Shown: piece by piece, positions 24,001 to 36,000 of the stretch
Layout of the letters: each line of letters starts with the position of its first letter
Numbering within the stretch: the stretch's first letter is position 1
Origin: an uncultured Chroococcidiopsis sp.
GTDB taxonomy: Bacteria > Cyanobacteriota > Cyanobacteriia > Cyanobacteriales > Chroococcidiopsidaceae
NCBI GenBank assembly: GCA_964248365.1
Contig: CAXTYC010000006.1
Span: 1 to 64,000 of the forward strand
DNA: 64,000 nt
Direction: 5' to 3'
Made by a program: the position numbers

Positions 24001-27000
24001 TTGTTAGCATGAATCACCGCATCACAGCTTTGCTAGCAAGTTATTTTGATATCATCTTTGCAGTCAACTATGTGCCTCATCCTGGGGAAAAACGCCTTGT
24101 AGATTGGGCTAAAAAGCTATGTAAAAAATTACCCAACAATATAGAACATTACGTTAAACGTGGCAAGTGCAATATCATTGAACTTGGGCAACCAGGATGT
24201 AATTCACCATATTAATAGACTTATTGATAGTTTAGATGAATTATTAATAGCAGAGGAACTAATCACAGCAGATGAAAATTAGCCTAATAGCATTTTCAGT
24301 TAATTAGATTACAAATGGATGCTCGTCAAAGTGTTTCACAGCAAGAGTTTCTCAATTCCATTATCTAAAATCTATGGCTCCAAAATTGGTATTACCCACC
24401 CCATCACTATTGCATAGCCTAGAATATTGGCATCACTTCACCTAGAAGGAATGCTTGTATGAATCAGCCACTAACCGAACGGGTAATCTGGACTAAATCT
24501 GACTTAGATCTCTTACCAGATAACGGCAACCGCTATGAGATTATTGATGGAGAACTATTTGTGACAAAAGCACCACACTGGAAGCACCAACTAACGTGTG
24601 GTAGAATCTTCTCAGTACTTGATAGTTGGTCTGGATCTACTGGTTTAGGGCAATCTGCAATTAATCCAGGGATTATTTTTACCGACACTGATAATGTCAT
24701 TCCCGATGTAGTGTGGGCTAGTAATGAAAGATTAGCTGTTTTACTAGATAATGCAGGGCATTTAACCGCAGCGCCAGAGTTAGTAGTAGAGGTGTTATCC
24801 GCTGGTGGGGAGAATCAGAGGCGAGATCGAGAAGCAAAGCTGAAGCTGTATTCTTCTAGAGGAGTACGGGAATACTGGATTGTCGATTGGCAAAAGCAAC
24901 AAATTGAAGTTTATCGTAGGGAACAAGCGGTGCTAAGGTTGGTTGCAACTTTGTTTATAAATGATGAATTAACTAGCCCTTTATTACCTGCTTTCAATTG
25001 TCCTGTAGCTAGAATATTTGCTTAGGAATTAAGAGCGATCGCTAGCTTATTTATTCATTATATATAGACTTTATTACAATCTTGGGATTATTTGCTGGGG
25101 CATTAACTACAATTGCTATTGGTAGTTGAATGGGAGAAAGCAATGCCCTTACGGCTGGTGAAATTTGCGCTGTCTCACAAGTACCCAGAACCGCGAATGT
25201 TCCGGCAGCGCGATCGCCTACGATCGAGCTATGATGCCGTTATTATCGGGGGAGGAGGTCACGGACTTGCTACCGCCTATTACCTAGCGCGAGATTATGG
25301 CATGAATAATATTGCCGTACTTGAAAAAGGATACATCGGCGGCGGTAACACGGGACGCAACACGACGATTATTCGCTCTAACTACCTCACGCCGGAAGGG
25401 GTAAAGTTTTATGATGAATCGGTGCGGTTATGGCAGGATTTAGCGCAAGACTTTGACCTAAATTTGTTTTATTCAACTCGCGGTCACTTCACGTTGGCAC
25501 ATACTGATTCTGCCCTAAGAACGATGCGCTGGCGGGCAGAAGTTAATAAACACTTTGGCATTGATAGCGAGTTGGTAAGTCCAGACGAGATTCAAACAGC
25601 TTGTCCGCACATGGATATGACTTGTGGCGGTCATGCGCCAATTTTGGGAGCATTATATCATGCTCCTGGTAGTATTGCGCGTCATGATGCAGTTGCCTGG
25701 GGATATGGTCGCGGCGCAGATCTAAAGGGGGTAGAAATTCATCAGCAAACCGAAGTTGTGGGGATTACGGTTGAGGCTGGGCGAGTAACTGGAGTAGAGA
25801 CAACGCGGGGTAATATTTCCACACCTCGCGTCTTGTGTGCAGTGGCAGGATTTACGCCGCGCATTTTGGAGATGGTGGAACTGCGATCGCCACTTTATAT
25901 CCACCCGTTACAAGCAATGGTCAGCGAACCGATGAAACCTTGGCTCGATCCGATTATCGTTTCAGGTAGTTTGCACGTATACGTTAGTCAAACAGCGCGG
26001 GGAGAGTTGGTGATGGGTGCATCGCTCGATCCTTATGAATTGCATTCTACACGCTCGACACTCGATTTTGCTGAACTCCTGGCGGCTCATATGCTAGAAC
26101 TATTCCCCTTTCTCTCCCACGTCAAAGTAGTGCGTCAGTGGGCGGGAATGGCAGATATGACTCCAGATTTTGCCCCAATTATGGGTAAAACCCCCATCGA
26201 TGGATTTTATCTCGATGCAGGTTGGGGAACATGGGGTTTTAAGGCAACGCCTGTATGTGGGAAGACGATGGCATATACAGTAGCAAGCGATCGCAATCAT
26301 GACTTAATCAAAGACTTCTCCCTTTCACGGTTTGTCAATTACGCTCTGATGGGTGAAAAAGGCGCGGCTTCAGTGGGGCATTAGCAATGAAAATTATGAA
26401 CTGTCCAATCAACGGTCAAAGACCGATTTCTGAATTTATCTACTGGGGTGAAGTCCGCCCGATGCCCGATCCAAAAACAGCTAATGATGCAACTTGGGCA
26501 GATTATATATTTAACCGCAATGGCGCACCTGGAATTAAACAAGAATGGTGGTGTCACACACCTAGCAACACCTGGTTTATTGCCGAGCGAGACACGCAAA
26601 AAGATATAATTTTACGCACCTATTTGTATGGAGTGGCAGTATGAGCGATCGCCTTCCTCCTATACCAGGTGAATGGATTGACCGCAGCCAACCTCTTGAT
26701 TTCACCTTTGAGGACAAGCGATACTGGGGCTATAAGGGAGACACTGTAACAAGTGCATTGTGTGCCAGTGGGCAGCATATTCTCGGACGCAGTTTTAAAT
26801 ATCATCGTCCGCGTGGAATTTTAAGCCTTGCCAACCATGATATTAATGCCTTGATGCAGTCGGGACAAGAACTGAATTTACGGGCAGATGTTACACCCTT
26901 AGAGGCTGGAATGTCGCTAACGGCGGTTAATACCTTTGGTGGTATAATGAGCGATCGCCTTAGCGTTCTGGGCTTGTTCTCCTCATTTCTACCTGTTGGC

Positions 27001-33000: not shown

Positions 33001-36000
33001 TAGTTTCTAACCTTGCCCCAGATGTGGTAAGGCAATGGCTGACAAAATATCGTCCACAGTTACATATACTGTCAATCGGTCGAACGATAGATCTTTACAA
33101 AGATACAGGCAAACCCGCCCACGTTGCCGCTCGCTATCACTTCAAGTCTCTCAAAGGTTCCCATCTAGTCGGACATACCCGCATGGCAACCGAATCGGCA
33201 GTTACACCCGCCCACGCTCATCCTTTTACCGCTGGGGAAGACTTCTGTCTAGTCCATAACGGATCGCTGTCGAACCCAAATGAAATTCGCCGCAAACTCG
33301 AACCGCGTGGAATTCGCTTTGAAACTGATAACGACACTGAAGCTGCTTGCCGTTTCCTAGAATGGCGGATGCGCGAGGGGGATGACTTGGAAACTGCTCT
33401 CAAACAAGGGTTTGAAGAATTGGATGGTTTCTACACCTTCCTCATGGGTACTGCCGACAAACTGGCACTGGTGCGAGATGCCTTTGCTTGTAAACCTGCC
33501 ATTGTAGCAGAAACAGATGATTATGTAGCGATCGCTTCTGAATTTCGTTCTCTAGCTCACTTGCCAAACGTAAACAATGCCCATATCTACGAACCTGCAC
33601 CAGAGGAGTTGTACGTATGGAAGGTTTAACGTTCGATCTTAGGCAAACGCCCTTGCGCGAAATCAACCACTTTTTGCATCACGATGCTATTCACAACATT
33701 GGGCAAAAGGTGAAAATCCTTAATCCCGACGGCGCACATAACATTGCCGTTGGGCTAGATGCTCCGATTGAGGTAGAGATTGTCGGTCATGCAGGCTACT
33801 ATGCCGCTAGCATGAACAAGTTAGCCAACGTCACTATATTGGGTAATGCAGGTACAGGCGTTGCTGAGAATATGATGTCAGGGCGCGTGCAAGTCAAAGG
33901 CTTTGCTTCAGTTTCCGCCGGAGCGTCTGCTCATGGTGGGTTACTAGTTATTGATGGCAATGCCAGCTTGCGATGTGGTATTTCTCTTAAAGGCGCTGAT
34001 ATTGTAGTTGGTGGTAGTGTCGGCAGTTTCTGTGCATTCATGGCACAAGCCGGACGAATATTAGTGTGTGGAAATGCTGGGGATGCTCTAGGTGACTCGC
34101 TCTACGAGGCAGTAATTTATGTGCGTGGCAACATTAAATCTCTTGGTGCAGATGCCCAACTTGAAACCATGTCTGAGGCGGATTACGAGGCAGTTGGAGA
34201 GTTATTAGCCAAGGCGGGTGAGTCCTATAATCCCAAAGAGTTTAAGCGCGTTGCTTCTGCAAAGCAGCTTTATCACTGGAACGCGGATGCGAATCAGGAG
34301 TATTAGATATGGATAATTCTCAATTTAACTCTTCCTCCCGCCAGGAGTCCTGGGGATACGATCGCCGTACAATCGACTACATCCAGAGCGCTGCTGCACA
34401 TGGACTATACGAAATTCGCGGACTGGGAGCCAAGCGCAGGCTACCCCACTTTGATGATCTGGTGTTTCTCGGTGCGTCCCTATCGCGCTATCCTCTAGAA
34501 GGATATCGAGAGAAATGCACCACGAAAACAATTCTCGGTACTCGCTACGCCAAAAAGCCGATTGAGCTAGAAATTCCGATTACGATCGCCGGAATGAGCT
34601 TCGGATCGCTCTCTGCTAATGTTAAAGAAGCGATTGGTCGGGCGGCGACGCAAATGGGAAGCTCGACAACTACGGGCGATGGCGGAATGACACAGGAAGA
34701 ACGGCTTTCCTCCAAAACCTTGATTTATCAATGCTTGCCTTCTCGCTACGGATTCAACCCAGACGACCTAAGAAAAGCAGATGCAATTGAAATTGTCATC
34801 GGTCAAGGAGCAAAACCTGGTGGTGGTGGAATGCTTTTAGGGCAAAAGATCAACCCACGAGTTGCCCAAATGCGGACATTGCCGGAAGGAATCGATCAAC
34901 GCTCTGCGTGTCGTCATCCTGACTGGACAGGACCTGATGACCTAACGATCAAAATTCAACAATTGCGAGAGATTACCGACTGGGAAAAACCTATTTATGT
35001 CAAAGTGGGCGCTTCACGTCCGTTTAACGATGTGAAACTTGCTGTTCATGCTGGAGCAGATGTAATTGTTGTAGACGGAATGCAAGGAGGAACAGCCGCC
35101 ACCCAAACTGTATTTATCGAACACGTAGGCATTCCCACCTTGGCAGCCGTGCGCCAGTCGGTAGAAGCGCTGGAAGACTTGGATATGAAAGGTAAGGTGC
35201 AGCTGATTGTTTCAGGTGGAATTCGCACGGGGGCTGATGTTGCTAAAGCTCTGGCAATGGGTGCGGATGCAGTAGCTCTTGGTCAGGGTATTCTCATTGC
35301 CTTGGGCTGCAACAGTGAAACCTACATTCAAAATGACACTCACTATTCGGCTTTAGAAGACTATGCTGCACTTGGTACCGCACCTGGCTACTGTCACCAC
35401 TGCCATACAGGTAAATGTCCCGTTGGAGTAACGACACAGGATGAAATTTTAGAACTTCGTCTTGAACCCGAAGTCGGAGCGCGGCGAGTCAAAAATTACC
35501 TCAAAACTCTAAATATGGAATTGACTACAGTTGCTCGTGCTTGTGGTAAGCAGAATGTCCACCACCTCGAACGCGAAGACCTGGTTGCACTTACGGTCGA
35601 GGCAGCAGCAATGGCACGTCTGCCACTGGCGGGAACCGATTGGATTCCAGGTTGGCATTAACCAATTATCAATTAACAATTATCAATTATCAATTACCAC
35701 TTGTTCATTGTTCATTGTTCATTAGACTTCTTGCATGAATCGATTTATATCAATTTTGAGGTAGGGGCGGGTTATGTGAAAATCTTTAATTTCAACAAAT
35801 ATCCTCTCAAAATCCGCCCCTACAAAAATATTCGTGCAAGAGGTCTATTGATAGCTGATGGTGGAAAAAACCGAAAAACAGAAGATGCTAGCAGGTGAGC
35901 TGTATTTTGCTCTCGATCCCGAACTGGCTGCGGATAACAAACGTGCGTCTCGTCTTTTGAGAATGTACAATGCCACGACTGAGTTAGAACCAGAATTGCG

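Follow-up and report, generated by a model that had tools for sequence, protein, structure and literature searches.

The region 25143-35661 of the window (the whole 64,000-nucleotide stretch analysed, from contig CAXTYC010000006.1 of an uncultured Chroococcidiopsis sp.) is predicted to be a functional N-methylglutamate (NMG) pathway operon, a reading to which we assign a probability of about three in four. The eight pathway genes (gmaS, mgsABC and mgdABCD) are all present, intact, clustered and tightly spaced. The analysis shows which genes the cluster contains, that they are intact and under purifying selection, how they are related to homologues in sequence, synteny and phylogeny, and where the junctions lie. 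The complete set should allow nitrogen and a one-carbon unit to be drawn from methylamine. The cluster is a known pathway, now in an unexpected phylum: our literature search found no paper reporting the NMG pathway in a cyanobacterium, and methylamine is not known as a nutrient of oxygenic phototrophs.

Gene content of the cluster

Nine open reading frames, all on the plus strand, were listed within 25113-35661, and all nine are intact. Their spacings in gene order are a 2 nt gap, two 4 nt overlaps, gaps of 18, 36 and 111 nt, a 13 nt overlap and a 2 nt gap, which reproduces the nine co-directional genes and close spacing of the preliminary description. Its central claim of a complete NMG route also holds, as domain content, the match of GmaS to a solved ligase and gene-for-gene synteny with methylotrophs agree. 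The eight pathway proteins align at full length with homologues from 46 complete loci.

Four sarcosine-oxidase-type subunits, with the folate-binding part in the largest, make up the putative NMG dehydrogenase MgdABCD. The FAD-dependent, soxB-like beta-type subunit MgdA (25143-26384; TIGR01373, E 7.2e-141; PF01266) carries a GGGGHG motif, and its start is more likely at ATG 25143, behind GGGAGA, than at TTG 25113. It is followed by the delta-type subunit MgdB (26387-26644; PF04267 SoxD, E 3.3e-27) and the alpha-type subunit MgdC with a folate-binding aminomethyltransferase part (26641-29559; TIGR01372, E 9e-253; domains Fer2_4, Pyr_redox_2, SO_alpha_A3, GCV_T and GCV_T_C). The divergent gamma-type subunit MgdD (29556-30191) matches TIGR01375 soxG at E 4e-6 only, and a Pfam search of the protein gave no match; its position is occupied by a homologue in every complete locus compared, and the sections of PMC5023235 consulted report this subunit as unusually divergent. 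Membership in heterotetrameric sarcosine oxidase (TIGR01372-01375) is not supported, all four subunits scoring under the curated NCBIfam cut-offs (soxB 469.7 bits against 529.45, soxD 53.7 against 116.5, soxA 841.3 against 1164, soxG 26.8 against 143.95), so that it is the gene context that links them to N-methylglutamate.

The gamma-glutamylmethylamide synthetase (glutamate--methylamine ligase) GmaS is encoded at 31293-32621. Residues 4-442 match PDB 9qur, 'Glutamate--methylamine ligase', at E 4.8e-219 and 730 bits, with 7cql as runner-up at 360 bits and glutamine synthetase (GS) entries at 277 bits or less, which places the protein nearer to the solved methylamine ligase than to glutamine synthetases. 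It exceeds the cut-off of TIGR03105, 'type III glutamate--ammonia ligase' (649 against 469.6 bits), and stays under that of TIGR00653 GlnA (368.7 against 429). GFAGFA of GmaS aligns with PFDGSS of the genome's own GlnA, and the window protein and three homologues read G-F-A-G-F/G-A at this place. The Asp and Ser of the GS ammonium site, which we take to be Asp50 and Ser53 in enteric GlnA numbering, are thus missing from GmaS and kept in the genome's own GlnA. The 111-nt spacer between gmaS and mgsA (32622-32732, plus strand) holds a weak terminator-like hairpin at 32681-32694, a consensus match only in a region with 10 terminator-like sites against 12.1 expected.

The NMG synthase is encoded as three separate subunits that match the amidotransferase, GXGXG and FMN domains of glutamate synthase. 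MgsA (32733-33629) is a class-II amidotransferase-like protein (GATase_6/7) opening with MCGIVG (ATG TGC), so that the N-terminal Cys is present, and is 73-75% identical to Zoogloea/Azoarcus homologues. MgsB (33617-34306; PF01493, E 1.1e-10) is the GXGXG subunit of GlxC type, and the equivalent position on the Acidithiobacillus caldus megaplasmid is annotated 'protein glxC'. MgsC (34309-35661; PF01645 Glu_synthase, E 1.3e-93) is the FMN-binding, glutamate-synthase-like subunit, 83-85% identical to Zoogloea/Azoarcus proteins.

The ninth gene, at 30210-31256 between mgdD and gmaS, encodes a serine hydrolase of the beta-lactamase/S12 D-peptidase fold (PF00144, E 3.5e-76) with the motifs SISK, YDN and HNG. 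Its insertion, already proposed in the preliminary description, is confirmed by metagenome contigs from three runs of two studies, which span both junctions at ~96-98% identity. No other locus compared has such a gene here, which makes it private to this lineage. An identity as class C beta-lactamase is not supported (NF033085, 108.8 against a cut-off of 415), as the protein shares no more than the fold and the motifs SxxK/YxN/HxG with that class; among solved structures it comes closest to a 'Pbp related beta-lactamase' (2qmi), alkaline D-peptidase and D-amino acid amidase. With the Pfam match starting as early as residue 5, no signal peptide is apparent by eye, and the protein is predicted to be cytoplasmic. 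The gene has its own ribosome-binding stretch and the leader of gmaS is left intact.

Junctions of the cluster and loss of the regulator

Although the function proposed in the preliminary description stands, the copy in this genome is atypical, with the regulator gone, the promoter region replaced and a private gene inserted, and it is a derived form. A divergent XRE-cupin regulator (HTH_3 and Cupin_2) lies upstream of mgdA in each of the 11 other cyanobacterial loci that were scanned, as in many proteobacterial loci, and directly before mgdA in G027, the genome with the nearest copy. It has no match at E 0.001 in the genome under study (G000, 99.97% complete), while the same query was positive in 12 genomes of the family.

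The left junction was mapped by comparison with G014 and G027. A Uma2-family gene outside the pathway (24459-25025, plus strand; PF05685, E 1.8e-36) is followed by a 63-nt remnant of a PQ-loop/SemiSWEET-like gene (25054-25116, plus strand), which consists of the leader and the first ~17 codons with the start ATG now ATA. A full-length form of the gene stands in G014:C299 (L129 988-1242), with 84% identity to the remnant, and an intact copy elsewhere in this genome (G000:C4:212531-212785) shows 79%. G014, which of the relatives is nearest in the two flanking DNA stretches compared, has the Uma2 homologue and then the PQ-loop gene and no copy of the cluster. Homology with the native mgdA leader of G027 begins only ~20 nt before the ATG.

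These junctions suggest that the cluster was relocated, losing its regulator and own promoter, becoming fused behind the Uma2 gene and the truncated PQ-loop gene, and gaining the hydrolase gene between mgdD and gmaS. With regulator and native promoter lost, expression would have to start at a foreign upstream promoter, and we infer promoter capture by the relocated operon, with the Uma2 gene as a possible source of read-through transcription. A promoter scan of the region gave 26 sites against 18.8 +/- 4.3 expected, nothing beyond chance, and no NtcA-type site is conserved upstream of the cluster, which leaves no sign of wiring into cyanobacterial nitrogen control. No RNA run was among the runs listed. 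On the right, heptamer tandem repeats (CAATTAT, TTGTTCA) and a palindromic dispersed repeat follow at 35662-35851, with many short matches elsewhere in the genome and in relatives; in run X1 the summed contig depth of bin 35284-35717 was 333, whereas the remaining bins of the cluster (25302-35283) had 2-14.

Distribution and origin

GmaS at an identity of at least 79% was found in 12 of the 27 other genomes of the family, four of the six of the genus among them, and in 2 of 400 other genomes sampled across the phylum (G027, of this family, and G274), all as previously counted. In two of the 12 carriers gmaS is damaged, being truncated in G010, where mgsABC is also gone, and carrying an in-frame TGA in G007; G015 keeps only the regulator, likewise with an in-frame TGA. 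No GmaS was found in the 373 genomes from other families of the order. Enrichment in Chroococcidiopsidaceae is therefore real (12/27 against 0/373, with one phylum hit from outside the family), but the trait is not restricted to the family, since records named Stenomitos (two), Tildeniella, Phormidesmis, Hydrococcus, Leptolyngbyaceae and Thermosynechococcaceae also carry the cluster.

A tree of six concatenated proteins (46 rows, 2804 columns) unites the 14 cyanobacterial rows in a single clade (SH-aLRT 100), whose sister group comprises Zoogloeaceae/beta-proteobacteria and Acidithiobacillus (SH-aLRT 100); the sister-group placement depends on a quick LG+G4 tree and an assumed root. The GmaS tree likewise places 21 cyanobacterial rows in one clade (98). 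The arrangement mgdABCD-gmaS-mgsABC recurs unchanged in Zoogloea, Azoarcus, Methylophilaceae, Methylobacillus, Opitutales, Spirochaetia and the A. caldus megaplasmid mpAca1.1 (NZ_CP005987.1), where purU and folD flank the cluster; the loci compared, including L077, L080 and L082 of Methylophilaceae/Methylobacillus, all come from strains other than those studied experimentally. Homologues of GmaS occur on 34 PLSDB plasmids, and in Stenomitos and Tildeniella purU adjoins mgdA and is 78-80% identical to Zoogloea purU. The module probably entered the cyanobacteria once from a beta-proteobacteria-like lineage, as XRE-cupin regulator, purU and the eight genes, and is now patchily spread among mostly terrestrial members. 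GC3 of the cluster (0.38-0.46) is close to cyanobacterial composition (genome mean 0.383).

Proposed role and alternative explanations

Substrate flow and physiological role are deduced from the genes. Methylammonium would enter through Amt, GmaS would join it to glutamate with ATP to give gamma-glutamylmethylamide, MgsABC would convert this to N-methylglutamate, and MgdABCD would oxidise the latter to glutamate, with transfer of the methyl carbon to tetrahydrofolate to give methylene-H4F. On balance the cell would gain ammonium nitrogen and a C1 unit, the latter for the folate pool or for oxidation to formate by FolD and PurU; a genome search found one Amt, PurU above its cut-off and FolD, and the position of purU next to mgdA in Stenomitos and Tildeniella fits a methylene-H4F product. 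The main benefit to a phototroph would probably be a nitrogen source. In the portions of PMC5023235 consulted, pathway genes of Methyloversatilis are up 6.6-12.8-fold on methylamine (among seven rows listed) and mgs mutants lose growth on methylamine.

It is unlikely that the operon is just carried along, silent or in decay, after losing regulator and promoter on relocation and being interrupted by a foreign gene. Such a fate would suit the missing regulator, the ~20 nt of native leader, the decay seen in G010 and G015 and the lack of a copy in G014. Against it, all nine frames are intact, the inserted gene brings its own ribosome-binding stretch with the gmaS leader undamaged, and dN/dS against the G027 copy is 0.04-0.15 for six genes (with dS ~0.9-1.3, close to saturation), which speaks for genes in use. 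Environmental variants with ~2-4% base differences also keep the identical arrangement, and the gmaS differences listed among them are 11 synonymous and 4 non-synonymous.

About equally improbable is a role in detoxification instead of nutrition, whereby ordinary glutamine synthetase would lock methylammonium imported by Amt into a dead-end amide, which the pathway would only clear, regenerating glutamate. The consulted parts of PMC10794816 state that Amt transports methylammonium and that bacterial GS makes methylglutamine from it, those of PMC5023235 mention that such a role had been predicted for GmaS, and the lack of a conserved NtcA site upstream is compatible with it. However, clearance through MgsABC and MgdABCD frees usable nitrogen regardless, so that detoxification and nutrition are not exclusive, and the linked purU of Stenomitos-type loci points to sustained C1 flux over occasional clearing.

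GmaS enzymes of methylotrophs accept ethylamine, the Mgd subunits are related to sarcosine oxidase, and another primary amine was already allowed for in the preliminary description. We nevertheless consider it very unlikely that ethylamine, sarcosine or another primary amine or N-methyl amino acid is the real substrate, given the match of GmaS to the methylamine ligase, the sub-threshold sarcosine-oxidase scores of all four Mgd subunits, and the orthology and synteny of the eight genes with clusters of methylamine-using Methylophilaceae.

Beyond the NMG operon itself, we tentatively consider, with the odds against it, that an air-exposed or terrestrial guild (Chroococcidiopsis-like, Aliterella-like, Stenomitos, Tildeniella and Phormidesmis) takes nitrogen from methylamine and passes the methyl carbon to the folate pool. 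The operon would have been acquired once from beta-proteobacteria with regulator and purU and then passed among cyanobacteria; here it would have been freed from the regulator by promoter capture and have taken in a cytoplasmic amidase-like hydrolase, which could free amines from amides as extra substrate. If true, the nitrogen economy of these oxygenic phototrophs would in effect be light-driven and partly methylotrophic.

Comparison with known systems

The cluster shares with sarcosine oxidase SoxBDAG four subunits, FAD- and folate-binding domains and the order beta-delta-alpha-gamma, but its mgd genes are joined in one operon with gmaS and mgsABC and score below the family cut-offs. According to the consulted parts of PMC5023235, Methyloversatilis universalis FAM5 has eight equivalent gene products, including a poorly conserved gamma subunit, and the same pathway logic (methylamine to gamma-glutamylmethylamide, N-methylglutamate, then glutamate and methylene-H4F), whereas its numbering runs gmaS-mgsABC-mgdABCD instead of mgdABCD-gmaS-mgsABC. 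Unlike FAM5, the host is an oxygenic phototroph, and nothing here indicates that methylamine serves it for carbon and energy.

Closer still are the clusters of Zoogloea/Azoarcus and A. caldus mpAca1.1, identical in gene order and direction, with the highest non-cyanobacterial identities (GmaS 73-74% for Zoogloea/Azoarcus and 71% for the A. caldus plasmid, MgsC 85%, MgdA 77-80% to Zoogloea homologues at the equivalent position). Their upstream XRE regulator and purU are common to Stenomitos and Tildeniella; the window differs in lacking regulator, purU and folD and in its extra hydrolase gene. The cyanobacterial copies compared (G001-G003, G005-G007, G011-G013, G016 and G027 in the family; G274, Stenomitos, Tildeniella, Phormidesmis and Hydrococcus elsewhere) share the eight orthologous genes, with protein identities of 51-92% (79-90% for GmaS, the gamma subunit being the least conserved), but differ from the window in that the XRE-cupin regulator is present in every locus scanned and the hydrolase gene in none.

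Gene content and enzyme assignment

Nine reading frames, all on the + strand, lie between 25113 and 35661 of the window. They are separated, in order, by a gap of 2 nt, two overlaps of 4 nt each, gaps of 18, 36 and 111 nt, an overlap of 13 nt and a gap of 2 nt. No frame is interrupted, and the genome has a single copy of the cluster. NCBIfam and Pfam assigned the first three genes to a soxB-type flavoprotein, SoxD and a soxA-type large subunit with Fer2_4, SO_alpha_A3, GCV_T and GCV_T_C; the fifth (30210-31256) is a beta-lactamase-fold protein, the sixth matches TIGR03105 ('type III glutamate--ammonia ligase', 649 bits), and the last three are a class-II amidotransferase, a GXGXG protein and a Glu_synthase-domain protein. 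Gene names follow a study on Methyloversatilis (PMC5023235): mgdABCD (N-methylglutamate dehydrogenase, 25143-30191), gmaS (gamma-glutamylmethylamide synthetase, 31293-32621) and mgsABC (N-methylglutamate synthase, 32733-35661). The start of mgdA is most likely the ATG at 25143, which is preceded by GGGAGA. The fourth gene, mgdD (29556-30191), gave only a weak soxG match (E 4e-6) and no Pfam match, a weakness explained by the unusual divergence that the same study describes for the gamma subunit (PMC5023235). The nine + strand genes of the preliminary description and their spacings were reproduced from the ORF listing. Homology, synteny and selection all support its functional reading as a complete N-methylglutamate (NMG) route, a prediction from sequence. 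Between gmaS and mgsA, the gap of 111 nt contains a small GC hairpin with a T-rich run behind it (32681-32694, a consensus match only), which might attenuate transcription between the two operon halves.

Against solved structures, GmaS matched the 'Glutamate--methylamine ligase' 9qur over residues 4-442 (E 4.8e-219), followed by 7cql with 360 bits and by true glutamine synthetases with at most 277 bits. In an alignment with the GlnA of the same genome (contig C42), GmaS and three homologues carry GFAGFA (GFAGGA in the Methylobacillus homologue) in place of the GlnA motif PFDGSS, whose Asp and Ser we take to be the ammonium site of glutamine synthetase; GmaS thus lacks these two residues, while the motifs for ATP, metal and glutamate are retained in the same alignment. 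MgsA begins with M-C-G-I-V-G, so that the N-terminal cysteine is present. All four Mgd subunits score below the curated NCBIfam cut-offs for sarcosine oxidase and are therefore relatives of that enzyme, not members by this test; the assignment of N-methylglutamate as the Mgd substrate rests on gene context.

Signs of use

Relative to the nearest copy of the cluster (in genome G027, of the same family), dN/dS was 0.04-0.15 for mgdC, mgdD, gmaS and mgsABC at a dS of about 0.9-1.3. Among the differences listed for a variant in metagenome run X1, gmaS carried 11 synonymous and 4 non-synonymous changes and the inserted hydrolase gene 8 of each. The genome holds one Amt transporter, FolD and PurU, which would make uptake and the onward path of methylene-H4F available. 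Genes for upstream steps of methylated-amine use were sought by two families: that of TMAO demethylase hit only GcvT-type parts below its cut-off, and that of the methylamine dehydrogenase light chain had no match, its control likewise being without one. A search for RNA runs holding 26000-35661 had no match either, a result that bears on expression in neither direction.

A relocated copy with an inserted hydrolase gene and no regulator

The copy in the window is a derived form: it has been relocated, lacks the regulator and carries a private hydrolase insertion. In 11 of 11 other cyanobacterial loci scanned, a divergent regulator of about 210 residues (HTH_3 + Cupin_2) precedes mgdA. The XRE-cupin regulator query matched 12 genomes of the family, among them G027, in which the regulator is the immediate neighbour of mgdA, and had no match in the genome studied here, which is 99.97% complete. 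The closest relative by the flanking DNA compared (G014) is without the cluster and has a Uma2 gene, then an 84-residue PQ-loop gene and then a 545-residue gene. The window retains Uma2 and a 63-nt piece of the PQ-loop gene (25054-25116), in which the start codon has become ATA, and an intact PQ-loop gene is found elsewhere in the genome (C4:212531-212785). Behind this piece the native mgdA leader, as judged against G027, is reduced to about 20 nt; together with the Uma2/PQ-loop remnant this indicates that the native promoter region is gone, and we infer that transcription of the cluster would start from the Uma2/PQ-loop side. To look for control by NtcA, GTAN8TAC was searched for in the 300 nt before mgdA of 17 cyanobacterial copies; none had an exact site, and no site with one mismatch was conserved. 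The window has only ATAN8TAC, at -79; a wiring to nitrogen control is thus not supported. A promoter and terminator scan counted 26 promoter-like sites (18.8 +/- 4.3 expected) and 10 terminator-like sites (12.1 expected), with no promoter signal beyond chance.

The beta-lactamase-fold gene lies between mgdD and gmaS, 18 nt past the end of mgdD, and the leader of gmaS that follows it is intact. This gene was present in none of the other loci compared, namely the best 80 of 575 confirmed matches, on contigs of one genome per species, and 13 regions of kin. An assembly artefact was ruled out at this position, as the junctions are bridged by contigs of three metagenome runs from two studies: one X1 contig spans 28060-30720 and another 30717-31946, and contigs of X2 and X4 also cross the junction to gmaS. 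With identities of about 96-98%, these contigs show that the arrangement is real and present in wild relatives. In the product, the motifs SISK, YDN and HNG are present and no signal peptide is evident. Among solved structures it is closest to a 'Pbp related beta-lactamase' (2qmi), an alkaline D-peptidase and a D-amino acid amidase, and an assignment to class C beta-lactamases failed the NCBIfam cut-off. Homologues with 58% identity occur elsewhere in two genomes of the comparison (G023, G010) and fragments in two more (G013, G015); the GC3 of the gene (0.387) equals the level of the genome.

The right boundary (35662-35851), directly 3' of the mgsC stop, consists of tandem heptamers (CAATTAT-like, then TTGTTCA three times) followed by a palindromic element, TAGGGGCGGG ... 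CCGCCCCTA, which is dispersed over many contigs of this and related genomes. Summed metagenome contig depth was 78-333 at this repeat versus at most 14 in the other bins of the cluster. Two more short dispersed repeats in the upstream intergenic DNA (24285-24398 and 23423-23465) have 80-100% matches on other contigs of this genome, G014, G010 and other genomes of the family. The chorismate synthase gene aroC is found twice, in the window (22314-23405) and on a 2.8 kb contig (C98:550-1644), with 86% DNA and 91% protein identity; the second copy could be a true duplicate or stem from a second strain in the assembly.

Distribution among cyanobacteria

The cluster had been described as a trait of Chroococcidiopsidaceae nearly absent from other cyanobacteria. 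The underlying counts were reproduced: GmaS with at least 79% identity occurs in 12 of 27 other genomes of the family (4 of 6 of the genus) and in 2 of 400 other genomes sampled across the phylum (G027 and G274). In addition, 0 of 373 genomes from other families in an order sample had it. The tendency is therefore right, but a restriction to the family is too narrow, as a species-wide scan returned the whole cluster in named records of Stenomitos frigidus (two records), S. rutilans, Tildeniella nuda, Phormidesmis sp. and Hydrococcus sp., and partial cluster contigs in a Leptolyngbyaceae MAG, a Thermosynechococcaceae MAG and one unclassified MAG. Mis-binning is possible for some of these records, which are MAG contigs; the contigs of Stenomitos and Phormidesmis span 0.2-6.3 Mb. 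The list was drawn from the best 80 of 575 confirmed matches and is therefore to be read as a minimum. GS-like genes of other cyanobacteria (42-47% identical) were rejected as hidden NMG clusters, with no mgs or mgd homologue within the flanks of at most 1.5 kb a side at nine loci (L014-L022). In four genomes of the family (genera g6 and g7) that are without the NMG cluster (G020:C136:2310-7581 and like sites in G017, G019 and G022), a GS-like gene 43% identical to GmaS has a second GS-like gene 2.6-6.2 kb away, and these pairs may represent another gamma-glutamyl-amine system.

Decay was seen in two kin, G010 and G015. The G010 copy (L113, G010:C1:1369947-1386831) has the regulator, a partial mgdA about 2.7 kb from mgdB and a gmaS cut at residue 298; mgsABC were not found, and half of the cluster is lost. 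In G015 (89% complete) GmaS was not found, and a copy of the XRE-cupin regulator (G015:C340:3716-4345; 97% identical to that of G012) has an in-frame TGA and may be the relic of a lost cluster. An in-frame TGA is also present in the gmaS copy of G007; this copy and the truncated one of G010 are both counted among the 12 of 27. Pieces of IS605-type OrfB/TnpB, HNH endonuclease genes and an IS1 transposase adjoin several cyanobacterial clusters (L105 1930-3230 in G003, L104 3194-3655 in G002, L024 17744-18466), which fits a mobile or rearrangement-prone neighbourhood. At the G001 locus only (L103 16258-16695), a gene of the glutathione-dependent formaldehyde-activating enzyme (GFA) family lies about 260 bases past the last cluster-type match and may be a link to C1 handling.

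Origin and transfer

All 21 cyanobacterial sequences in a GmaS tree of 93 rows fell into a single clade (SH-aLRT 98). A second tree, from concatenated MgdA, MgdC, GmaS and MgsABC (quick LG+G4; 46 rows with all six proteins, 2804 columns; degraded L113 and three duplicate rows left out; root placed on a differently ordered delta-proteobacterial set) likewise united its 14 cyanobacterial rows (100). Their sister is a group of Zoogloeaceae, other beta-proteobacteria and Acidithiobacillus (100); both groups together sit inside the remaining Pseudomonadota. Proteobacterial clusters are flanked by the same regulator (58-78% identical) and by purU (60-80%), and purU also lies between regulator and mgdA in Stenomitos and Tildeniella; these flanking genes agree with the proteobacterial origin seen in the tree. 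The simplest reading is that a ten-gene module was imported once and that most cyanobacterial lines later lost purU. A recent import was ruled out by the GC3 of the cluster genes, which at 0.38-0.46 lies within the range of the genome (mean 0.383, sd 0.055, 95th percentile 0.468).

After such an import, the cluster may have been transferred among cyanobacteria or inherited vertically with losses. In the trees the window copy clusters with G027 or with genus g2 and not with its own genus. The identity of its GmaS hardly varies from taxon to taxon (81-83% to G011, G001, Stenomitos, Phormidesmis and Hydrococcus), whereas over the same genomes MazG declines from 81 to 72% and AroC from 90 to 84%; outside the family these two are lower by 5-9 points. 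MgsC and MgdC identities show a small gradient, and AU tests rejected neither monophyly of the genus (p 0.117) nor of the family (p 0.37). The grouping and the flat GmaS identities thus give only a hint of transfer among cyanobacteria.

Meaning and comparison with known systems

Known nitrogen sources of cyanobacteria are nitrate, nitrite, ammonium, urea, cyanate, some amino acids, N2 and, as a recent addition, guanidine. To our knowledge, the only use of methylamine in this field is to trace ammonium transport with a compound that is not metabolised. A full-text search, thin on subscription journals so that an earlier report is possible, returned no report of the NMG pathway or of growth on methylamine in a cyanobacterium. 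A Trichodesmium study found only possible Tmm and GmaS homologues and ascribes the pathway to associated alpha-proteobacteria (bioRxiv 10.1101/2021.03.10.434842), and a Lake Karum metagenome places the NMG pathway genes mainly in Halobacteriota (PMC13595746). If true, a complete NMG pathway under selection in desert and polar cyanobacteria that are in culture and widely studied would provide them with one more nitrogen source, call for caution with methylammonium uptake assays in carrier strains, and add oxygenic phototrophs to a methylated-amine cycle now ascribed to heterotrophs. The idea is directly testable in culture, because carriers, close non-carriers and copies with and without the regulator occur in one genus.

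Judged by homology, the cluster is a known pathway in a new host phylum; since the NMG pathway and the enzymes behind it are already well described, the finding extends the host range without adding a mechanism. Among the loci compared, the order mgdABCD-gmaS-mgsABC in one direction is also found in Zoogloea, Azoarcus, Methylophilaceae, Methylobacillus and Acidithiobacillus, and further in Thioalkalivibrio, Thiomicrorhabdus, Opitutales, Spirochaetia, Acidobacteriota and others; the 'delta proteobacterium' set has a different order, gmaS-mgsABC-mgdABC. Homologues of GmaS that are 60-71% identical occur on 34 plasmids in PLSDB. On the A. caldus megaplasmid, where ISL3 transposases lie downstream, the NMG unit is annotated as XRE regulator / purU - FAD oxidoreductase - SoxD - 2Fe-2S protein - glnT - amidotransferase - glxC - glutamate-synthase-family protein - folD.
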